Of a stretch of DNA of 64,000 bases, positions 22,575 to 31,980 are shown piece by piece. The notes below the pieces were generated by a model that was not told the origin of the DNA, made no database searches, and saw nothing but the letters and a program-made list of their open reading frames with translations. Position 1 is the stretch's first letter; each line of letters starts with the position of its first letter. The position numbers and the translations under genes are program-made. The DNA is from a bacterium (GTDB lineage: Bacteria; UBA8248): contig OZ253442.1 in assembly GCA_965261085.1 (NCBI GenBank), positions 2,912,001 to 2,976,000 on the forward strand, written 5' to 3'.

Positions 22575-22822
22575 AGCAGCCCTTTTCGGGCAGCCGCAAC
22601 GAGGCGTATTCCTTGCGGGATTGCGCGTGAACTTTATGTCAATCCGCAAGCTGTTTACGACCTCCCAGAGCCGTCGATCGGGATGGTCGAGATGTTGCCG
22701 CCTTAAATGGATGAGGTTGCGCCGGGAGGTAGTGTTGTTTTCCCCCTAAGGTCCGATCTCCATCCATACCTTGCGCGCCACACTCCTTGACCAGGAAGGC
22801 GCTCGCAAAAGGGGGAAAGGAA
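22575..22822 (+). ncRNA. Candidate cis-regulatory structured 5' leader (unassigned family)
   Basis: Several complementary segments, including TTTCCCCCT (22739-22747) pairing with the RBS region AGGGGGAAA (22810-22818). Confidence 0.4.
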
Positions 22823-25006
22823 ATGAACAAAAATAGACTGCGAATCTCGATTATCGTTCTTCTGGTGGCCGTGGCCGTCGCCTCCTTCGGTTGCGGCGGT
22901 GGCTCCGGCGCCAACCCGGCGGCAGGCGGCGATTTCATCACTGCCGTGGTGCCGGGCGCAGGCTCGACGTCCGGCAGTGAAAGCAAAAACCCTAGCCCTG
23001 GTGATCCGCCATCGAATGGAGACGGGGGAAGAGGGTCCGGCAGCCCCACCCACTCGACGTCTCTTGGCGGAGGAAACGGGCCCGGCAGTTCGACGCAAAA
23101 TACTCAAATCGAGAAAGAACCACCCCCTATCGGCTTTCAGTTAACAGATGATTTTCAGGAAGAAAATTATCCTCTGCCTTGGGAGCATGGCCTCTTCGAG
23201 GGCCGGATTGTATTGTTTGCCGGCAAATCAGAAAAGCATGGCAACTTGTTAATTACGTGTCCTTCGGGCCGCAAGGCATGCATCTTAAACGTCGGCTCTG
23301 ACGGCTCGTTGTCCTACGCAGTAAGCAACGGCCTGCCCAGCTTTACGCTTATCCCAACCGAGGGATTTCCAGACATCCCGTTGCCGCAGCCCAACGAAGC
23401 GGCGCAGGCGCCTGTTGTCGAACTCGATTTTGGAAGCACCCTGCACGTGGGGTCCAACGTCGCGCCTCGGGCCGACGAGTTGACCACAGGTGTCGACCGC
23501 AACGGAGTGTCCGTTTCATACGGACAGGTTCGGGACGGCATCGGGGCGAACGAAGTCCTCGAATTTATGAATTTACACGTTAGTCTTGAAGATAAGATTA
23601 CCCATGGTGGTGTGGGAGGCGCCCCGGGTCTCGAAACGTTTCCCGAACCGCCGACCATCCGCCTCGCCGAGGGAACCAGCGATTCATACGCCCGGTTTAC
23701 GGCGCACGCCGTTCAGTTGATCAACAACGCCTTGCCCTATGAGAAGCGCATCACAATCAGCCCGGAGGCTTTGCCGATAGATACGGAATTAGGTGACCTC
23801 TCGGAGGGAGAGATTTTTCTCAATTTCGGTTCGCTCGCATCACGCACGCTAGGGGGCGCCAAACTTTTAAGCAGTTACAATGAAAATCAAGAAGAAGTTC
23901 AAAAGGCATTAAAAGCCCTTGTCACTATAAATGAACATCAAATGCGTAAGGCCTTTGTGTATGACCCCCCGCCGGACCCGGTTGAGAATACGCCGGAAAA
24001 CTGGGAAACTATTTTAGAGGAATATTGGGGTTCAAAATATCCGGATAGCCGGGTTGAGAATTCAGACACGATCATCAAATTTTACAACGACAGGATATTC
24101 CTTTCAGTCGTTGTTCATGAAATCATGCATGCCCTCGGCTTTTATCATACCGACGAAACTAGAAATACTAAATCAGTCATGCATCCCATTGTAAACGAGG
24201 GCCAAGTAAACGTACCTTCACCTTACTTGCCCGAGAACTCGCTCGTTATCATAATCCCCTTGCAGATTGTTAACCTGACTGACGAGGAAACAACTGTGCC
24301 CGTGCTCGAGGCAACAACAGCTCAACTTGCACTCGAGGCGACAACAGATCAGCCCGAACGCAATTCGCCGGGCCGCCTCGCCACAGCAGATGCTCGATCC
24401 GTACCCGGGCATAACCTGTTTCCTCTCGACAGGGCGGCCCTGCTGGCGGCCTACGGCAGGATCGATCCGGGCACTCAGCCGGATGAACTGACGGCGGAAA
24501 ACCTGGGCGCCTGGACCGACAGGTCGTTTCACCTGCGTGGGGATGTGGATTTTCCGGGCGGACAGGCTACTTTCGGCGTCGCCTCTAGCAACGGCCTGAT
24601 CCAGCCCTGGGCATCGGGCCCGACGCCTTGGACGAACCTGGCGGATAATCGGGTGTTGCCGGGAAGCGCTACCTGGAACGGCGCGCTCCTGGGCATCACT
24701 TCTTCATTGGAAACGGTCGCAGGCGACGCCCGCCTCTTCGTGCGGTTGAGGAACCTGAATGGGCGAATCGACTTCACCGGCCTGGAGAAATGGGGGGTGA
24801 ACGAGGCGCCGGGAGAGGCCGGTAGCGGTACGACGTGGGACGATGGCGATCTGGGATACACAATCGAGGTTCGCGGCAATACATTCATCCAGACCGGCGG
24901 AGACGACGGCAAGGTAACCGGCGCGTTCTTCGGCGTCGCTCACGAGGCGATGGGCGGCGTACTCGAACGCGCCGACCTGGCGGCGGGCTTCGGCGGGAAG
25001 CGATAA
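22823..25006 (+). CDS. Surface lipoprotein with metzincin zinc-metalloprotease motif and C-terminal TbpB-like beta-barrel
   Basis: Signal ending ASFG-CGGG; Gly/Ser linker; HEIMHALGFYH (24116-24148) with SVMHP Met-turn; C-terminal VTGAFFG..HEAMGGVL......GFGGKR. Confidence 0.8.
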   Translation: MNKNRLRISIIVLLVAVAVASFGCGGGSGANPAAGGDFITAVVPGAGSTSGSESKNPSPGDPPSNGDGGRGSGSPTHSTSLGGGNGPGSSTQNTQIEKEPPPIGFQLTDDFQEENYPLPWEHGLFEGRIVLFAGKSEKHGNLLITCPSGRKACILNVGSDGSLSYAVSNGLPSFTLIPTEGFPDIPLPQPNEAAQAPVVELDFGSTLHVGSNVAPRADELTTGVDRNGVSVSYGQVRDGIGANEVLEFMNLHVSLEDKITHGGVGGAPGLETFPEPPTIRLAEGTSDSYARFTAHAVQLINNALPYEKRITISPEALPIDTELGDLSEGEIFLNFGSLASRTLGGAKLLSSYNENQEEVQKALKALVTINEHQMRKAFVYDPPPDPVENTPENWETILEEYWGSKYPDSRVENSDTIIKFYNDRIFLSVVVHEIMHALGFYHTDETRNTKSVMHPIVNEGQVNVPSPYLPENSLVIIIPLQIVNLTDEETTVPVLEATTAQLALEATTDQPERNSPGRLATADARSVPGHNLFPLDRAALLAAYGRIDPGTQPDELTAENLGAWTDRSFHLRGDVDFPGGQATFGVASSNGLIQPWASGPTPWTNLADNRVLPGSATWNGALLGITSSLETVAGDARLFVRLRNLNGRIDFTGLEKWGVNEAPGEAGSGTTWDDGDLGYTIEVRGNTFIQTGGDDGKVTGAFFGVAHEAMGGVLERADLAAGFGGKR

Positions 25007-25051: not shown

Positions 25052-26086
25052 CTACAAATACTCCCGCACCTCCACCGTCCGGCCCAGGCGGGAGCTGGCG
25101 TCCGCGGCGTAGACGGCGGCGAGGTTCTCATGCGCGGCGCGGCCGTCGACCTCGGGCGTGCGGTCCTCGCGCACGCAATCGGCGAAATCCTCGAGCGCAT
25201 CGCGGAACATGTCACCCTCCGGCATGTCGTATACGGCGTCCTCGCCCAGCGGGTCACGGTCCACATGCAGGCGAATGGGTTCCGGCGCCTTTGAGGGGTC
25301 GCGCCACTGCTGGCCGGTGATGCGGAAATGCGCGACGCCTTTCGTGCCGTGCACGTTCATGTGAAACGCCCAGGGACACGCCCAGCCGCCGCCCACGTAG
25401 GAGAGCGCGCCGCTTTCGTGCTCCAGAATCATCATCGAGGTGTCGTCCACGTCCTCGGTTGCGTAGGCGCGCTTGAGCCTGGCGGTGACGCTTTTTATCG
25501 GCCCGTGCAGGTAGCGGAACGTGTCGATGTGGTGGATGGATAGCTGGATGACGACGCCGGTGGGGTTCAGTTCGCGGCTCGAGCGCCACTTGTCGGGTGT
25601 GAGTTCCAGGCCTCGCTCGGTGCAGAAGTTGCTCTCGCTCATCGAGATTTTTCCGATTTCGCCCGCATCGATCAGCTCCTTCATGCGTCTGGATACGGCC
25701 AGGCGGCGCGCGCTGTGGCCCACCGCCAGCTTGACGCCCGCGCCCTCGGCCGCATCCACGATGGCTCTCGAGTGCTCCAGGCTGTGGGCGATGGGTTTTT
25801 CGCAATAAACATGCTTGCCCGCGGCGGCCAGCGCCTCGATGTGCTCCTTGTGGTTGTGGTTGGGCGTCGTGAGGATGACGGCCTCTATTTCATCGTCGTT
25901 CAAGAGCGCTTCCAGGCAATCCGCCTCGCGCGCGCCGTAGCGCTCCATGAAGGCGCGGCGCTTCTCGGGCGTGCGGCTGAAGCAAGAGACGAGCCGGATT
26001 TTGCCTCCGCGCAGCGCGGCGTCGGCGAGCACGTTGGCCCAGCGCCCCAACCCCATCGAGGCGGCGCGCACGGGTTCGAACGACAT
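25052..26086 (-). CDS. Gfo/Idh/MocA family oxidoreductase
   Basis: GLGRWA, TTPNHNH, AGKHVYCEKP, GHSARR and IHHID motifs. Confidence 0.93.
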   Translation of the reverse strand: MSFEPVRAASMGLGRWANVLADAALRGGKIRLVSCFSRTPEKRRAFMERYGAREADCLEALLNDDEIEAVILTTPNHNHKEHIEALAAAGKHVYCEKPIAHSLEHSRAIVDAAEGAGVKLAVGHSARRLAVSRRMKELIDAGEIGKISMSESNFCTERGLELTPDKWRSSRELNPTGVVIQLSIHHIDTFRYLHGPIKSVTARLKRAYATEDVDDTSMMILEHESGALSYVGGGWACPWAFHMNVHGTKGVAHFRITGQQWRDPSKAPEPIRLHVDRDPLGEDAVYDMPEGDMFRDALEDFADCVREDRTPEVDGRAAHENLAAVYAADASSRLGRTVEVREYL

Positions 26087-26186: not shown

Positions 26187-26645
26187 CTAGATGCTCACCT
26201 GGAAATTGGGCAGGCGAACGCCGCCTCCCGCATCGACAGGCGCCGCGCTCAACTCATCGAGCGTGGTCTCGCGCAGCGTCTCGTCTATGGCGTCTTCGAG
26301 TTTCTTCCACAGGGTGCGGCTCCCGCACACCGGAATGTTCGGACACGGCGACGAGGGCGGCGCCTCGCCGCAATCGACGGGCTTTATCGTCTCCCCCACC
26401 GCGCAGAAAACGTCGCGCATGTTAATTTCAGAGGGCGGCAGCGCCAGAATGTAGCCGCCTCCCGGCCCCCTCGTGCTGCTCACCAGAGAAGCCCTGCGCA
26501 TTTTCACGAACAACTGCTCCAGATAGTGCTGGCTGATACCGAGCTTGCCGGCTATCTGGGGCAAGGGGACGGGATGCGTCTGAGAATGCCGTGCCAACTC
26601 TATCATGGCGAGCACGGCGTATCGTCCTTTGGTCGATATCTTCAT
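26187..26645 (-). CDS. Rrf2-family transcriptional regulator (IscR/CymR-like, three Cys)
   Basis: MKISTKGRYA, YLEQLF, STRGPGGGY and C-x8-C-x5-C motifs; AAAGGA RBS. Confidence 0.93.
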   Translation of the reverse strand: MKISTKGRYAVLAMIELARHSQTHPVPLPQIAGKLGISQHYLEQLFVKMRRASLVSSTRGPGGGYILALPPSEINMRDVFCAVGETIKPVDCGEAPPSSPCPNIPVCGSRTLWKKLEDAIDETLRETTLDELSAAPVDAGGGVRLPNFQVSI

Positions 26646-26676
26646 CGGCGGCATCCTTTCATCAAGCGACTCGACA

Positions 26677-27492
26677 TCATGGCCAAGCGAGCACTCCCCG
26701 CCGCACGGGGATTTTCGTTTGCCCGCGCGCAGCGAGCGCGCAGACGGGACAATCCGGGTTCTGGGCCACACGCACGCTCCCGACGGCGTTTTTCCAGAAA
26801 TCAGCCGTCATCAGCCTGTTCGACCAGGCGGGCTCAAGCCCCTGGAGAACACGCAGCGCATCGGCGGCCTGCGCCATGCCCACGAAACCCGCCACCGCTC
26901 CGAAAACGCCCGCATCCCCGCAATCGAGGCCGCGCGCGTTTGCGCCCTCCTCTCCCACGAGGCAGCGCAGACACGCGCTCTTACCGGGCAGAATCGTCAG
27001 AACCTGGCCGAAAAACCGTAAAACGCCCCCCATCACCCACGGCTTGTTCGATGCGGCGCAGGCGTCGTTCAGGGCCATTTTGGACTCGATATTATCGCTT
27101 CCATCGATGATGACGTCGTAAGGCGCGATGATTCGGGCGGCATTCCCGCGCGTGAGTTTTTGGGGAATCTTATCCACAGCTACCTTGGCGGATAGCCTGA
27201 AAATGGAATCAGCACCCGAGTCCACCTTCAGGCGGCCGATGTCCTCGCCTCGGTGGAGAATCTGGCGGGCCAGGTTGTCGAGCGACACCACGTCGTGATC
27301 CGCAAGCCCGATGCGCGCAACGCCCGCCGCCGCAAGGGCGAGCGCGGCGGGACAGCCCAGGCCGCCGACCCCCACGATGAGGACGGACGAGCCCGCCAGG
27401 GCGCATTTCTCGCTCTTGGGTGCCGTGGATGCGCTTGCGGACGCCCCCGGCGCTGCACCGGGCAGCCCCGCGTGAGGAGTATGAAGGCTCAT
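26677..27492 (-). CDS. ThiF/MoeB-family E1-like adenylyltransferase lacking the N-terminal RYxR helix
   Basis: GVGGLG, D..V...NLARQ, DGSDN, CLRC, conserved Cys (LDCGDAGV) and CPVC; start overlaps the upstream stop (ATGA). Confidence 0.9.
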   Translation of the reverse strand: MSLHTPHAGLPGAAPGASASASTAPKSEKCALAGSSVLIVGVGGLGCPAALALAAAGVARIGLADHDVVSLDNLARQILHRGEDIGRLKVDSGADSIFRLSAKVAVDKIPQKLTRGNAARIIAPYDVIIDGSDNIESKMALNDACAASNKPWVMGGVLRFFGQVLTILPGKSACLRCLVGEEGANARGLDCGDAGVFGAVAGFVGMAQAADALRVLQGLEPAWSNRLMTADFWKNAVGSVRVAQNPDCPVCALAARGQTKIPVRRGVLAWP

Positions 27493-27983
27493 GCGCCCGC
27501 CTCCTCGAATATCTCCAGATCGCTTTCAACGAAAGTCTTTTGCTCCGCATCCCAGTAATACACCTTCTGGCCGAGTACGACGCCCGCGCGCACGCTCATG
27601 ACGACGTGCCCCGCATCCGGGAACGCCGGGATATCGCCGAAAGGAACCGCCGCATCCACGTCTTCCTGTGAAAAATAGGCGTCCTCATCCGGGTGGCTGT
27701 GAAAGATGCCGCGAACCACCTCGCCCGCCTCCTCGGCCCGCCTCACGATGCGCTCGAACTCGAAGGGATCGATCAGAAAAGCGCGCCGCGCCGTTCGGGG
27801 ATAGATTTCCGGGTCTTTCTCGTGCATCTCGTTCTGCACGTTTTTACAGGGCGAAAGGGCGAAAGTTTCTTCTTTATCCCCTTGCGCAGGCGGGGGGCCG
27901 ATAATCAACCCGCAGCACTCATCGGGATACGCCTCGCGCGCGTGGCGGTGCATCGCCTCCACCTGATCACGATTCAGACGCAA
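27489..27983 (-). CDS. JAMM/Mov34/MPN+ metalloprotease (M67, Mec-like)
   Basis: YPDECCG (Glu) and FHSHPD..AYFSQED (HxH-x7-S-x2-D) motif. Confidence 0.93.
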   Translation of the reverse strand: MRLNRDQVEAMHRHAREAYPDECCGLIIGPPPAQGDKEETFALSPCKNVQNEMHEKDPEIYPRTARRAFLIDPFEFERIVRRAEEAGEVVRGIFHSHPDEDAYFSQEDVDAAVPFGDIPAFPDAGHVVMSVRAGVVLGQKVYYWDAEQKTFVESDLEIFEEAGA

Positions 27984-27994
27984 ATCAAGCCTCC

Positions 27995-28933
27995 CTAGCG
28001 CGCTTCGCTCAAGTACCTGTCTCCCCCGTCGGGAAACAGGGTGACGATGACGCCCTTTCCTATCCGCTTCGCCACCTCCCGCACGCCCACGAGCGCAGCC
28101 CCCGCCGAGTGGCCGATGAAAAGGCCCTCTTCTTTCGCTATGCGCTCGGCCAGGTCGTAGCTCTCCTCGGTGTCCGCCAGAATCAGGTGATCGTGCACGC
28201 TCTCATCGTAAATCCCCGGGCGAATGGCCGTGGGGATGTGCTTCATGCCCTCCAGGCCGTGAAACGATTCTGAGGGCATGACGGCATGAACCTGAACGTC
28301 TGGCTTCCTCGCCTGGAGGCCGCGCCCCGTCCCCACGAGGGTGCCCGTCGTGCCGAGGCCCGCTACGAAGTGCTCCACGCGCCCGTCGGTCTGCTCCAGA
28401 ATCTCGACCGCCGTGGTCTCCACGTGGGCGAGCGGGTTGGCGGGGTTGTCGTACTGACAGGGCAGGAAATATTTTTCCGGCTCGTCGCGGCGCATCTTCG
28501 CCGCGAGGCGCTGCGCCCCGTCCGAACCCTCCAGGGGGTCCGAGAGAACGATGTCGGCCCCGTAGCCCTTGAGCGTCGCCTTGCGCTCATCGCTCGCGTT
28601 CGCAGGCAGGACGAGGCGGACGGGAATCCCGAGCGCAGCGCCGATCATGGCGTAGGCGATGCCGGTGTTCCCGCTCGTGGAATCGAGAAGAATTTTCCCG
28701 GGGCGCAAATCTCCCGATTCCAGGCCGTCCTTCACCATGAAGAGCGCGGGCCTGTCCTTCACCGAACCGCCCGGATTGAACCACTCCGCCTTGGCGTAGA
28801 CTTCCACGTCCGGGAATTCGCTCTCGAACAACTTGATTTCGAGCAAGGGGGTGTTGCCGATGCACCTGATGATTGAGGAATCCCCTAAATTCCTGAACGC
28901 GCTCGCGGGATTCTCCACCGTCGATTCGACCAT
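27995..28933 (-). CDS. cysM: Cysteine synthase B-type (CysM-like)
   Basis: IGNTPL, NPGGSVKDR, STSGNTG, GLGTTGT and FPDGGDRYLS motifs. Confidence 0.85.
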   Translation of the reverse strand: MVESTVENPASAFRNLGDSSIIRCIGNTPLLEIKLFESEFPDVEVYAKAEWFNPGGSVKDRPALFMVKDGLESGDLRPGKILLDSTSGNTGIAYAMIGAALGIPVRLVLPANASDERKATLKGYGADIVLSDPLEGSDGAQRLAAKMRRDEPEKYFLPCQYDNPANPLAHVETTAVEILEQTDGRVEHFVAGLGTTGTLVGTGRGLQARKPDVQVHAVMPSESFHGLEGMKHIPTAIRPGIYDESVHDHLILADTEESYDLAERIAKEEGLFIGHSAGAALVGVREVAKRIGKGVIVTLFPDGGDRYLSEAR

Positions 28934-28966
28934 TGATATGGCCCTCGCACTTGGTTCCTGAAAATT

Positions 28967-29626
28967 TCAGGAAAGGTTCGCACGCGCTTCGATGAAGCCA
29001 TGCGAAAGATCGAAACGGGCCTGCGAAGTCGACCCCACCGTATCCATTCCATCCACAAGATACCGTAATACCCTGGCGGCCAGCCATGCGCCCAAAGCTC
29101 CCTGAGTCGCCATCGATGGCGAATCCCCTCCAGTAGAGGTTACGCCCGGCTTCCCGAAAACACCGGGGCCTTCGAGAATTTCACCCGCCTCATCACGGCT
29201 CGCGCCTCGTATGACGAATTTCCCCGTAGATTTGAGAGCCTCGTAATCTCTCGTGGACTCATCGCCCAGCCGGACGAGGACATCGAAATCCTCCCCCACT
29301 CCCTCGCCCGGTCGACAGGAAACCAGCCTGGAATCGGGATTGAGGCTCCTTAAGCCATCCCCCAGAGAAATACCTAAAAACGAGGAGAGCGGAGATTCTC
29401 CCCCCTGCCCGTCTCCCCCGCCGGCTTCATCTAACGGACACCAGCCGATGCGGCCCACGCCCGCAGCGGAAAGATAGGTCAGGGCCACGAGGGCGGCGTT
29501 CTCCTCACTCTTAGAAAACGCGAGGAGGACGGAGGACGCGAGCAGGCGCTCCTGCCCGACACCTCCCACGCCTGGGAGAAGAATGTGGCGGCTGTAGCGC
29601 TGAATCTGCTCTTCGCTCAAGCCCAA
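28967..29626 (-). CDS. Degenerate ThiF/MoeB-fold protein retaining RYSRH but lacking ATP loop and Zn motifs
   Basis: LSEEQIQRYSRHILLPGVGGVGQERL, YLSAAGVGRIG, LRSLNPD and GALGAWLAARVLRYL are present; GxGxxG, NLxRQ and CxxC are absent. Confidence 0.85.
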   Translation of the reverse strand: MGLSEEQIQRYSRHILLPGVGGVGQERLLASSVLLAFSKSEENAALVALTYLSAAGVGRIGWCPLDEAGGGDGQGGESPLSSFLGISLGDGLRSLNPDSRLVSCRPGEGVGEDFDVLVRLGDESTRDYEALKSTGKFVIRGASRDEAGEILEGPGVFGKPGVTSTGGDSPSMATQGALGAWLAARVLRYLVDGMDTVGSTSQARFDLSHGFIEARANLS

Positions 29627-29657: not shown

Positions 29658-29939
29658 TCAGTACAGGCCGCCCGCGATGGCCGGCACGATGGAGACCTCA
29701 TCCCCATCGCTCACCGCCGTCCCCTCGCCTTGCAGGAAGCGGATGTCCTCCTGGTTGACATAAATGTTCACGAAGCGGCGCAGTTTGCCCTCCTCGTCAT
29801 ACAGGCGCTGGCCGATGCCCGCGAACTGGTTGTCGAGGTTTGCGAGCACTTCCTTGACGTCCGCGCCCGCGATCTCCACGGCGTCCTGCTGCTGGGTGAA
29901 CTCCTGTAAAGGTGTCGGAATACGAACCGTTACCGCCAT
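29658..29939 (-). CDS. MoaD/ThiS/CysO-type ubiquitin-like sulfur carrier with C-terminal GG-LY extension
   Basis: VRIPTPL, LRRFVNIYVN.EDIRFL and DGDEVSIVPAIAGG-LY; AGGAG RBS. Confidence 0.93.
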   Translation of the reverse strand: MAVTVRIPTPLQEFTQQQDAVEIAGADVKEVLANLDNQFAGIGQRLYDEEGKLRRFVNIYVNQEDIRFLQGEGTAVSDGDEVSIVPAIAGGLY

Positions 29940-29991
29940 TTCTGTCTCCTGATCTGAAACCCCTCGCTTCGGGGTGGACGAAATAAGGTTT

Positions 29992-30951
29992 CTAATGAAA
30001 TTGCTGCTCCAGACTATAATATCTCTCCCATCCATCGGGAATCACGACCACCACGTTTTTCTCAGGACCCATCCGGGCGGCCGCGCGCAGGGCCGCGCAA
30101 ACGGCTGCGCCCGCCGAGATGCCTGCGGCCATGCCCTCCTCCCGGCTCAGGGCCTTGCTCATGTCGTAGGCGTCTGAATCGCTCACCTGCGCCACCTCGT
30201 CAATAACCGCCCGGTTCAACACCGCAGGGATGAAACCCGCGCCGATTCCCTGTATCTGGTGCGGACCCGGCTCCCCGCCCGAGAGAACGGGGGATGCGGC
30301 GGGCTCCACGCCGACGATGAGGGTTTCGGGCCTTCTCTCCTTCAAGACCTCGCCCACTCCCGTGATGGTGCCCCCCGTCCCCACGCCCGCCACGAAGGCG
30401 TCCACCGATTCCGCTCCCATATCGCGCAAAATCTCGCGCGCCGTGGTTCTGCGGTGGATTTCCGGGTTGGCCGGGTTGTTGAACTGCTGGGGCATGAAAT
30501 AGTCTGGATTTTCGGCCAATATGGCTTCCGCCATCACGAGGGAGCCGTACATGCCGCCCTCGCTCGAACTGAAGACCACCTCCGCCCCGTAGCCCGTGAG
30601 CAGAGAGTGCCGCTCGTGGCTCATGCTCTTACTGAGCACGATGATGGTCCTGTAGCCGCGAATGGCGCCGATGAGCGCCAAGCCTATCCCCGTGTTGCCG
30701 CTGGTGGGTTCGATGATCGTTCCGCCGGGCTTTAAGAGTCCACGCCGCTCGCCGTCGAGCACCATGCTGAGCGCGATGCGGTCCTTCACGCTTCCGCCGG
30801 GATTATATTGCTCGAGCTTGGCGAACACGCGCGCGCCGGATGCGTCGGGCAGGCGTTGCAGTTGGACGAGGCTCGTGCCCCCGATGCGATCGATGAGCGA
30901 GGGAAGCGCTCTCAGAATCTGGGGCGGACGACCCCGTGTGCCCAATGCCAT
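29992..30951 (-). CDS. cysK: Cysteine synthase A
   Basis: NPGGSVKDRIA, EPTSGNTGIG, QQFNNPAN, GVGTGGT and HQIQGIGAGF motifs. Confidence 0.92.
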   Translation of the reverse strand: MALGTRGRPPQILRALPSLIDRIGGTSLVQLQRLPDASGARVFAKLEQYNPGGSVKDRIALSMVLDGERRGLLKPGGTIIEPTSGNTGIGLALIGAIRGYRTIIVLSKSMSHERHSLLTGYGAEVVFSSSEGGMYGSLVMAEAILAENPDYFMPQQFNNPANPEIHRRTTAREILRDMGAESVDAFVAGVGTGGTITGVGEVLKERRPETLIVGVEPAASPVLSGGEPGPHQIQGIGAGFIPAVLNRAVIDEVAQVSDSDAYDMSKALSREEGMAAGISAGAAVCAALRAAARMGPEKNVVVVIPDGWERYYSLEQQFH

Positions 30952-31029: not shown

Positions 31030-31158
31030 TCCCCATTAAAGAGTTTTTCCGTTTCTTCTCATCTTCGAAATGCTCTTGGCATACTCCCAATATATTCTCG
31101 GTGTGCTACATTCTCATGGCGCATCGCCTTGTGATGTGACGTGAAAGGAGAAAGCGAC

Positions 31159-31980
31159 ATGGCTAAATCCGGGACGGTTCCCCCCATCGCCCTGACGATA
31201 GCGGGTTCGGACTCAAGCGGCGGGGCCGGGATTCAGGCCGATCTCAAGACTTTTAGCGCATTCGGCGTCTATGGCGCCTCGGTCATCACCGCGCTGACGG
31301 CGCAAAATACCGTGGGCGTTCAAGGAGTCCACGGCGCGCCGCCTGATTTCATCGCGGCGCAGTTCGATTCGGTATGTTCAGACTTAAACGTAGCAAGCGC
31401 CAAGATCGGCATGCTCGCCACGGTCGGCGTCATCGAGGTCGTGGCCGAGAAACTCAAAGCACACGCGCTCGCGCGCGTCGTGCTCGATCCGGTGATGGTC
31501 GCCAAAAGCGGCGATCGCCTCCTGGCGCCCGACGCCAGAGACGCACTCGTCGAAAAGCTCTTTCCGCTGGCCGACGTCGTCACCCCCAACACCGAAGAGG
31601 CGCGCGATATACTGGAGGTCCCCGAGATAGAGAACCTCGCGCAGATGAAGGACGCCGCCCGAGCCCTACATGAGCGCGGGGCGAAATGCGTCCTGCTCAA
31701 GGGAGGCCACATCACCGACGGGGCGGTGGATATTTTTTTCGACGGAGACAACGAGTTCGCACTGGAGGGTAGGCGCATCGACACCCCGCATACCCACGGC
31801 ACGGGATGCACGCTATCTTCGGCCATCGCGGCGGGGCTGGCCCTTGGGGAGTCCACCATCGAGGCCGTGAGAAAGGCGAAAGATTTCATTCAAGGCGCCA
31901 TCGAGAACGCGCTGGCCATTGGAAACGGAAGAGGCCCGCTTAACCACATGTACCGCCAACGCAAAGAGGAGTCCCGATGA
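31159..31980 (+). CDS. thiD: Hydroxymethylpyrimidine/phosphomethylpyrimidine kinase
   Basis: TIAGSDSSGGAGIQADLKTF, DPVMVAKSG and THGTGCTLS motifs. Confidence 0.96.
   Translation: MAKSGTVPPIALTIAGSDSSGGAGIQADLKTFSAFGVYGASVITALTAQNTVGVQGVHGAPPDFIAAQFDSVCSDLNVASAKIGMLATVGVIEVVAEKLKAHALARVVLDPVMVAKSGDRLLAPDARDALVEKLFPLADVVTPNTEEARDILEVPEIENLAQMKDAARALHERGAKCVLLKGGHITDGAVDIFFDGDNEFALEGRRIDTPHTHGTGCTLSSAIAAGLALGESTIEAVRKAKDFIQGAIENALAIGNGRGPLNHMYRQRKEESR

Follow-up and report, generated by a model that had tools for sequence, protein, structure and literature searches.

Bacterial adenylating enzymes of the MoeB/ThiF type are held to be symmetric homodimers. In the eukaryotic heterodimeric E1 enzymes the work is divided: one chain is inactive, and its N-terminal arginine completes the one active site, which lies on the partner. 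We describe here a pair of bacterial genes that may divide the work in a similar way. They lie on the minus strand of a stretch of 64,000 nucleotides (nt) from a bacterium of the UBA8248 lineage (assembly GCA_965261085.1, contig OZ253442.1, positions 2,912,001 to 2,976,000 of the forward strand); this whole stretch is called the window below. One of the proteins, P219 (219 amino acids, aa), is a dead paralog of ThiF fold in which the N-terminal arginine segment is preserved, and the other, ThiF271 (271 aa), is an adenylation domain without this segment. We believe, from the sequences and a modelled complex, that they are the subunits of an asymmetric ThiF/MoeB-type dimer that would activate the CysO-like sulfur carrier of the same operon; we put the probability of this reading at about 0.62.

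The closest described systems resemble the pair only in part. SAE1(Aos1)-SAE2(Uba2) and NAE1(APPBP1)-UBA3 also consist of two ThiF-fold chains, only one of which has an ATP site; however, the subunits considered here are short (219 and 271 aa) and without insertions, in particular without a catalytic-cysteine (Cys) domain in the crossover loop, there is no ubiquitin-fold domain (UFD) and no E2 in the operon, and the carrier serves cysteine synthesis, as a sulfur carrier, and not protein modification. According to PMC10557695, all known bacterial E1-like proteins are homodimers except BilD, in which an inactive and an active domain are fused and Arg9 comes from the inactive one. BilD (from the Bil antiviral operons) is bacterial and has a single active site in an inactive plus active arrangement, but, in the same source, it is one polypeptide with a mobile Cys domain and an E2, and it serves defence; here there are two genes without a Cys domain, and their context is biosynthetic. 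Yeast Tcd1-Tcd2 (ct6A synthase), as presented in PMC13139853, is a ThiF-family heterodimer of paralogs; Arg59 comes from the dead subunit, on which the solubility and activity of the other subunit depend. It differs in being eukaryotic and anchored in the mitochondrial membrane, in its substrate (tRNA t6A), in its extra C-terminal domains and in an active subunit that is not truncated N-terminally. PMC12355090 describes Arg57 and Arg515 as stabilising the gamma-phosphate site of the human enzyme hUBA1, in the manner of MoeB-MoaD.

The Escherichia coli MoeB and ThiF homodimers (1JW9/1JWA, 1ZUD/1ZFN) share with our pair the fold, the active-site residues (those of ThiF271) and the elements of the modelled interface; each of their protomers has both an arginine segment and an ATP site, which makes two active sites, whereas here each protein has one trait. 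On the metabolic side, the Mycobacterium tuberculosis CysO-CysM-Mec+-MoeZ pathway and operon type 4c of Iyer et al. 2006 (carrier, E1-rhodanese, JAMM protease and cysteine synthase; PMC1779556, the accessible part of which presents no split E1) have the same kinds of neighbours: a carrier, a cysteine synthase, a JAMM protease and an E1-like enzyme. Their single E1 is fused to a rhodanese, whereas here the E1 is split and the operon has no rhodanese; unlike the carrier of the M. tuberculosis pathway, the Nitrospinota carrier has 1-2 residues behind its GG. The accessible text of PMC12596934 mentions neither heterodimers nor inactive paralogs, and a full-text search of partly available sources (supplements outside its scope), which also covered PMC11601596 and bioRxiv 10.1101/2024.10.14.618325, found no ThiF/MoeB of bacterial sulfur-carrier operons described as split or heterodimeric. 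An asymmetric activase of the MoeB/ThiF type that is made by two genes and serves carrier-dependent cysteine synthesis, as proposed here for several phyla, is apparently undescribed.

Two ThiF-fold proteins with reciprocal losses

P219 is an open frame of 219 aa with a TTG start and a Shine-Dalgarno (SD) sequence, GAGAGGAG, 8 nt upstream. An earlier note on this DNA, made from the letters alone, had described the gene as keeping RYSRH and lacking the ATP loop, NLxRQ, the catalytic cysteine and the zinc-binding CxxC motifs. This description holds: aligned to the profile of active ThiFs, P219 has none of the seven ATP-site residues (G41, G43, G46, D65, R76, K89 and D133 in the numbering of its partner) and none of the five cysteines of an active ThiF (four of the zinc site and the one of the crossover loop). 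The RYSRH motif occupies residues 10-14, and its R13, by its place in the R-Y-x-R-Q/H motif, is what we take to be the counterpart of the finger arginine (MoeB Arg14, ThiF Arg11). The protein database holds 65 full-length rows of the P219 family, from 96% down to 38% identity; RYSRH is found in 63 of them, one reads RYSHH, and one is truncated N-terminally. R10, Y11 and S12 are invariant in the 22 rows aligned. The close homologs are named Nitrospinae, Nitrospinaceae or Nitrospinota bacterium, and the protein itself is labelled "hypothetical protein" in three of the four named Nitrospinota rows, as are the dead partners in the nearest Atlas clusters.

The fold of P219 is not obvious from single-sequence searches. 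No Pfam family matches it at E<=0.1, and the NCBIfam models of MoeB, ThiF and UbaA match residues 3-66 only (best E 1.2e-10, far under their cut-offs). A profile of 22 homologs, compared with solved structures, finds Uba4 (E 5.8e-15), ThiF (E 1e-11, residues 3-149) and MoeB (E 8.9e-9, profile positions 2-188 on chain positions 3-212). The AlphaFold2 (AF2) model of the monomer has a predicted local distance difference test (pLDDT) score of 59 and a predicted template modelling (TM) score (pTM) of 0.62, with the C-terminal 27 residues below pLDDT 50, and serves for fold assignment only; with this model Foldseek returns Uba4, ThiF and MoeB at probability 1.0 (query TM-score, TMq, 0.52-0.60) and also the inactive E1 subunits SAE1 and NAE1. 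Judging by the profile matches and this low-confidence structural model, the E1/ThiF fold spans the whole length of P219.

ThiF271 has lost the other part. Pfam ThiF (PF00899) matches it at 211.6 bits against a cut-off of 28.1, at profile positions 17-238 only, and it aligns without insertion to residues 28-248 of the 249 of E. coli MoeB (E 2e-39). The P-loop (GVGGLG, residues 41-46, aligned to that of MoeB), NLARQ, the lysine, DGSDN, both CxxC motifs and the crossover-loop cysteine are all present, which gives 7/7 ATP-site residues; these residues, the four zinc cysteines and the crossover-loop cysteine are invariant in 18 rows. The position of the RYxRQ helix is taken by 28 non-conserved residues rich in Ala, Pro and Ser; this stretch is found in part of the genus only and is absent or different in other ThiF271 orthologs.

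The description of this gene in the earlier note (a complete active site, a low-complexity Ala/Pro/Ser N-terminus, no RYxR, a start fixed by an ATGA overlap) was confirmed as well. The ATG overlaps the stop codon of the JAMM gene as ATGA, and the frame is open for only 11 codons further upstream (282 vs 271 aa), with no RYxR therein. The start codons of 16 of the 18 orthologs overlap the JAMM stop in the same manner, as ATGA or GTGA. No RYxR precedes the P-loop in any of the 19 genes of the ThiF271 type (the window and 18 loci, 19 genomes), their longest open frames included. The proposal of an upstream or alternative start that would give ThiF271 an RYxR was rejected, considering that the longest frames of all 19 genes have no such motif; the upstream extensions are an Arg/Gly-rich out-of-frame read-through of the JAMM gene. 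As far as the orthologous sequences tell, the arginine loss of the ThiF271 type is ancient and kept.

Co-occurrence, selection and the modelled complex

We surveyed 51 Nitrospinota genomes for homologs of both proteins. An intact full-length P219 without internal stops is present in 30 of them (five genera), and ThiF271 orthologs (52-90% identity) in 29, all of which have P219. The only genome with P219 and without ThiF271 is G022, where P219 lies 1,013 bp from the contig end, too close for the partner gene. There are no clear cases of ThiF271 without P219 (G040 has an ambiguous fragment of 100 residues). In G009, P219 is partly present at a contig end, and both genes are found, on two short contigs. 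The genomes without the pair have only the rhodanese-MoeB type of about 400 aa (35-40% identity). The co-occurrence of Arg-only and Arg-less paralogs, which the earlier note had named as a check on its proposal, is therefore strict in the phylum (29/30, the exception being a contig end). The order of seven genes is the same in all 16 complete Nitrospinota loci, and in two further genomes the locus is split over contigs. Reciprocal losses kept in every ortholog examined are, in terms of the sequences, more than chance.

The ratio of nonsynonymous to synonymous substitution rates (dN/dS) was taken as the median of the pairwise Nei-Gojobori (NG86) values for 55 pairs of 11 sequences from the genus of the window. 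The value for P219, 0.36, is the highest in the operon (cysK 0.08, carrier 0.08, cysM 0.10, JAMM 0.13, ThiF271 0.23, Rrf2 0.12). Within P219 it is 0.15 for residues 1-62, 0.43 for residues 63-170 and 0.34 for residues 171-219. P219 is a fast-evolving yet selected gene, and its arginine-bearing N-terminus is the most constrained part. The possibility that it is a pseudogene, a lineage-specific decaying one in the wording of the earlier note, was ruled out by the intact frames in 30 genomes and by dN/dS below 1 in all three segments. RNA libraries from two studies yielded contigs (90-99% alike) that overlap P219 in part and extend into its neighbours, cysM and the carrier gene. They are a weak hint of P219 transcription, since they come from relatives and may reflect DNA carry-over; no meaning attaches to the stretches without coverage.

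A similar pair is found in other lineages. Only 8 clusters reached E<=1e-30 in an exhaustive profile search with the P219 family. Of the 150 best representatives, 100 have a length of 190 aa or more; 77 of these 100 have the N-terminal R-Y-x-R without NLxRQ or a P-loop, and 20 have NLxRQ. When ten of the proteins were compared with NCBIfam, the seven degenerate ones matched at the first 60 residues or so only, under the cut-offs. In the ESM Atlas, P219 adjoins unnamed clusters of hypothetical proteins, assigned most often, where the phylum is known, to Binatota and Myxococcota (score 0.95).

Species genomes were scanned with an alignment of 36 proteins, which gave 80 loci; they were annotated with hidden Markov models (HMMs), and the seven ATP-site columns were scored. 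Canonical ThiFs only (the Arg motif and 7/7 ATP-site residues) are found in 46 loci, and an Arg-less ThiF in none of these 46. An Arg-less, 7/7-active ThiF occurs together with an Arg-only degenerate ThiF, the carrier and cysM lying between them, in 23 loci; the pair is cut by a contig end in 3 more and has a frameshifted active gene in one. The degenerate gene stands alone in 7 loci (3 at contig edges, 2 Magnetococcales TusA fusions, 2 without a partner within 8 kb). The degenerate ThiFs of the paired loci keep from 0 to 6 of the seven residues, with 0/7 in 16 of the 31 scored. Every Arg-less ThiF found, 19 in Nitrospinota and 27 elsewhere (the cut and frameshifted cases included), occurs with an Arg-only partner.

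The titles of the paired loci are mostly those of Candidatus Binatia and "delta proteobacterium" metagenome-assembled genomes (MAGs), with one Margulisiibacteriota and one Methylomirabilota. The usual order there is the active ThiF, a threonine-synthase-like pyridoxal phosphate (PLP) enzyme (420 aa, N-terminal zinc ribbon, PALP 234.6 bits), the carrier, cysM and the dead ThiF; three examples from the loci L056-L135 are listed in Table 1. A narrow JAMM HMM had no match in the 23 paired loci, where no Pfam search was made. A preprint on GapMind describes a MetM/MetO thiocarboxylate route to homocysteine. Because the operons with the threonine-synthase-like gene resemble this route, Binatota-type operons may, by analogy, make both cysteine and homocysteine from one carrier.

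A quick tree of 96 active ThiFs left the backbone unresolved. In a second quick tree, of 46 of these rows (five long-branch rows were dropped and the groups then thinned to every second row), all Arg-less ThiFs fall on one side of a branch with a Shimodaira-Hasegawa-like approximate likelihood ratio (SH-aLRT) support of 95.4, which is compatible with a possible single origin.

Two kinds of degenerate protein in the scan deserve separate mention. The Arg-only partner in L107 has 6/7 ATP-site residues and no crossover-loop cysteine; by its sequence, it resembles a stage at which the dead subunit had degenerated less. In two Magnetococcales MAGs (L081, L106), an Arg-only degenerate ThiF is fused at its C-terminus to a TusA sulfurtransferase domain (41.2 bits to PF01206); the 8 kb or so around these fusions contain neither an Arg-less ThiF nor a carrier or cysM.

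The two halves also occur in one polypeptide. P0215 (448 aa) and P0267 (449 aa), which are 89% identical and are the only fused clusters found, begin with a dead, Arg-only domain and continue with an active, Arg-less one, i.e., the dead-then-active order of BilD. Pfam ThiF matches them mainly in residues 218-439, and the active half has no crossover-loop cysteine. The gene context of P0267 (Table 1) is independent of the cysteine operons, and at the sequence level the fusion can be taken as Rosetta-stone support for the pairing principle. The AF2 model of P0267 has a mean pLDDT of 67 and is silent on the arginine, because residues 1-20 (the Arg helix) are below 50. Its Foldseek matches are single-domain ThiF/MoeB structures (target TM-score, TMt, 0.82-0.86) and, loosely, the two-domain UBA6 and UBA1 (TMq 0.49-0.57, root-mean-square deviation 11-18 Å); this model is a weak hint of an E1-like pseudo-dimer. 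An alignment of the degenerate proteins with the fusion fell partly on the wrong half and was discarded.

A complex of ThiF271 (alignment of 18 rows), ATP and P219 (alignment of 22 rows) was modelled in three runs and compared with three controls. The interface score from aligned errors (ipSAE) is 0.91 in all three runs, and the best of the three controls gives 0.00; in the calibration of that mark, 58 of 80 solved complexes attained it, as did 2 of 110 mismatched pairs. The runs share at least 95% of the contacts, and the pLDDT of the partner is at least 76. On the P219 side the modelled interface comprises residues 6, 9-14, 16-18, 20, 171-188 and 203-216, and on the ThiF271 side residues 71-76 and 78 (the NLARQ segment of the ATP site), 192-214 and 226-239. 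It is the canonical ThiF dimer interface: helix 192-214 of ThiF271 faces residues 171-188 of P219, and both C-terminal strands take part. Conservation is higher at the interface positions of P219 (n=55, mean 0.74) than at its other positions (n=164, mean 0.58; p about 1e-5 in a one-sided Mann-Whitney test), and positions conserved at 90% or more make up 22/55 of the former and 31/164 of the latter (Fisher p 0.002), with the reservation that the rows are related and core positions confound the comparison.

Gene neighbourhood and proposed pathway

The cluster in the window comprises seven genes in the order cysK-carrier-P219-cysM-JAMM-ThiF271-Rrf2 (Table 1). The cysK-like gene exceeds the cut-off of TIGR01139 (cysK; 396.2 bits vs 350.95), and the cysM-like gene is under the equivalog cut-off of TIGR01138 (cysM; 344.7 bits vs 394.2). 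With a carrier, a cysteine synthase and a JAMM protease together, a gene set of the CysO/CysM/Mec+ type is present.

Table 1. Positions of the features discussed (those without a locus or genome prefix are positions of the window)
Feature	Position	Strand	Remark
cysK-like cysteine synthase	29992-30951	minus	first operon gene; PALP 259.6 bits
ThiS/MoaD/CysO-like sulfur carrier, 93 aa	29658-29939	minus	Pfam ThiS 64 bits
P219, dead ThiF-fold paralog with N-terminal arginine segment	28967-29626	minus	proposed inactive subunit
RYSRH motif of P219	29585-29599	minus	residues 10-14
cysM-like cysteine synthase	27995-28933	minus	PALP 218.7 bits
JAMM/Mec+-like metalloprotease	27489-27983	minus	Pfam Prok-JAB 72.3 bits
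ThiF271, adenylation domain without N-terminal arginine segment	26677-27492	minus	proposed active subunit
N-terminal 28 residues of ThiF271	27409-27492	minus	Ala/Pro/Ser-rich
GVGGLG ATP-binding loop of ThiF271	27355-27372	minus	residues 41-46
Rrf2-family regulator	26187-26651	minus	last conserved cluster gene; Pfam Rrf2 123.7 bits
Gfo/Idh/MocA oxidoreductase	25052-26086	minus	
ThiD phosphomethylpyrimidine kinase	31141-31980	plus	328.8 bits
739-aa protein	22787-25006	plus	
Rhodanese-MoeB	G000:C1:1713405-1714709 (L001:1405-2709)	minus	possible sulfur donor for the operon carrier
P0267, dead-active fusion	L136:3038-4387		flanked by a histidine kinase gene and a gene for a ThiI/PP-loop ATPase, outside any cysteine operon
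Example paired locus	L057:4314-8651		
Example paired locus	L066:4262-8750		
Example paired locus	L075:4362-8696		
Arg-only partner with 6/7 ATP-site residues	L107:7926-8768		
Arg-only ThiF with TusA domain	L081:7750-8664		Magnetococcales MAG
Arg-only ThiF with TusA domain	L106:7989-8963		Magnetococcales MAG

The carrier is matched under the cut-off by the SAMP1 and MoaD-family models of NCBIfam. Its longest open reading frame (ORF) has 125 aa (start at 30035, i.e., 29658-30035) and overlaps the end of cysK by 44 nt (29992-30035); the 93-aa form starting at 29939 was adopted, since homology supports the shorter form. The protein ends in GG and two extra residues, LY. In the Nitrospinota orthologs (the window and loci L036-L055), 1-2 residues that differ between orthologs stand behind GG (R, L, LY, VG, G, C), and in the 80 scanned loci from other lineages, 25 ORFs matching the carrier HMM terminate directly in GG. 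The residues behind GG imply trimming by the JAMM protease before activation.

No rhodanese domain was found by Pfam and NCBIfam in ThiF271, P219 or the operon, and the operon has no E2-like gene. The genome (one contig of 4.27 Mb) has five ThiF-family matches. One of them, far from the window, is a rhodanese-MoeB with a frame of 434 aa, the rhodanese being N-terminal to the ThiF domain and the RYSRH motif intact.

The proposed mechanism is as follows. ThiF271 would hold the only ATP site, the zinc site and the crossover-loop cysteine. P219 would replace the second protomer and provide the canonical dimer interface, and its RYSRH helix would be set against the ATP site of ThiF271, like MoeB Arg14' and the inactive domains of the SUMO and NEDD8 E1s and of BilD. 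The JAMM protease would remove the 1-2 residues behind the GG of the carrier, the heterodimer would adenylate the carrier, and a thiocarboxylate would be formed via a sulfur donor encoded outside the operon. CysM would turn the thiocarboxylate into a carrier-cysteine adduct, from which the JAMM protease would free cysteine. What the data show are the sequences, the folds, their conservation, the co-occurrence and the order of the genes; we infer the heterodimer, the role of the arginine and all of the chemistry, the latter by analogy with CysO/CysM/Mec+/MoeZ of M. tuberculosis.

As concerns the surroundings of the cluster, the next gene downstream of the one for Rrf2 encodes a Gfo/Idh/MocA oxidoreductase, and thiD is divergent from the cys operon. 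Further on, a 739-aa protein has a signal-like N-terminus and a zinc-protease motif of the HExxHxxGxxH type; it has weak Matrixin and Astacin matches only (E about 3e-4, under the cut-offs) and otherwise belongs to no family.

Alternative readings and meaning of the pair

The heterodimer is the best-supported reading because several lines of evidence agree: the complementary losses, the strict co-occurrence in two or more deep lineages, the selection concentrated in the arginine helix and in the interface, the passing model, the fusion, and the precedents. At the level of the adenylation core, the pair would work like the inactive and active adenylation domains (IAD/AAD) of the SUMO and NEDD8 E1s. 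The single-active-site heterodimer claimed in the earlier note thus gains from co-occurrence, reciprocal losses, selection, the model, the other phyla and the fusion, with binding itself at the level of a model. Two of its attributes fare less well. The term "eukaryote-style E1" does not fit: the pair has neither an inserted catalytic-Cys domain nor a UFD or an E2, falls outside the canonical E1 class and is presumably an asymmetric sulfur-carrier activase of the MoeB/ThiF type. The claim that the dimer is obligate because the arginine is supplied in trans is weakened, since PMC13139853 reports the arginine to be non-essential in the MoeB and ThiF homodimers (Arg14 and Arg11, respectively) and TcdA to be fingerless. 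The main importance of P219 may lie in being the structural second half of the dimer or in offering a docking platform.

A number of points weigh against the heterodimer. In addition to the non-essential fingers, the same source reports that Tcd1 R59A costs only 26% of the product and that E. coli TcdA has no arginine finger, so that an Arg-less ThiF271 homodimer could work alone. The earlier note had asked whether the RYSR arginine enters the GVGGLG site; in the model with ATP, the RYSRH segment (residues 9-14) is indeed in the interface, but no contact between the arginine and ATP is reported. The passing score may reflect likeness to the solved ThiF/MoeB homodimers; it was obtained with unpaired alignments and with ATP riding along, which differs from the calibration of the tool, and, the heterodimer alone being modelled, it speaks to binding and not to a preference over the ThiF271 homodimer. 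The AF2 confidence for P219 is low (pLDDT 59). Across the loci P219 is 38-83% identical, compared with 73-97% for cysM, and is the fastest-evolving protein of the operon; the RYSHH cluster lacks the arginine equivalent to the finger; and the degenerate proteins in L081, L106, L113 and L129, with 8 kb of flank, have no Arg-less neighbour.

In an alternative reading, ThiF271 is an ordinary fingerless homodimer and P219 serves elsewhere in the pathway, away from the canonical dimer interface, e.g., in docking the carrier, CysM or the sulfur donor. We consider this reading unlikely. The non-essential finger and the fingerless TcdA (PMC13139853) speak for it, the Magnetococcales TusA fusions without a nearby Arg-less ThiF hint at a sulfur-delivery adaptor, and the middle of P219 is weakly constrained (dN/dS 0.43). 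It leaves unexplained, however, why the strongest constraint on P219 falls on its RYSRH/GQERLL N-terminus, why the Arg-less and Arg-only proteins are linked (19 and 27 cases vs 0 of the 46 canonical-only loci) and why they are fused in the dead-then-active order; nor does a non-canonical role of P219 agree with a modelled interface that is the canonical one. It is still less probable that ThiF271 pairs with the rhodanese-MoeB of the genome, which would give both the arginine and the sulfurtransferase in trans, and that P219 competes or regulates. Such a partner would account for the operon having neither a rhodanese nor another sulfur donor, and a rhodanese-MoeB with an intact arginine is present elsewhere in this genome and in all relatives; but it occurs in genomes with and without the pair, with no co-variation, it is only 35% identical to ThiF271, and the member of the operon is P219. 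That P219 is a functionless, decaying relic of a tandem duplicate seems very improbable to us, in spite of the loss of every catalytic residue, the absence of a Pfam match and the highest dN/dS of the operon. The conservation data contradict it: the frame is intact and without stops in 30 genomes of 5 genera, dN/dS is 0.36 overall and 0.15 at the N-terminus, the gene keeps its place in the operon and has an SD in front of its start, and look-alike degenerate partners are kept in other phyla.

Returning to the heterodimer, it is tempting to propose a wider reading, which we hold as a tentative and rather doubtful one: proteins of the P219 type would be the inactive subunits of old and widespread two-subunit (sometimes fused) sulfur-carrier activases, found in Nitrospinota, Binatota, Methylomirabilota, Margulisiibacteriota and Myxococcota-labelled MAGs. 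The asymmetry would then have arisen in sulfur metabolism, independently of conjugation, and the surface set free on the dead subunit would have been re-used for docking of sulfur-delivery or cysteine/homocysteine-synthase partners, as the TusA fusions hint.

If the heterodimer is real, several phyla would have a conserved two-gene asymmetric form of E1 in ordinary cysteine (and probably homocysteine) biosynthesis, while the homodimer view of the bacterial enzymes confines asymmetric E1s to eukaryotes or to ubiquitin-like defence. The division of labour between IAD and AAD could then evolve without conjugation machinery. The annotation would be corrected for the dead partners, which are "hypothetical protein" where they have a name at all, and for the active ones, which would otherwise pass for stand-alone ThiF/MoeB. 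The pair (219 and 271 aa) would also offer a small and tractable bacterial system for the role of the dead subunit and of the arginine helix.

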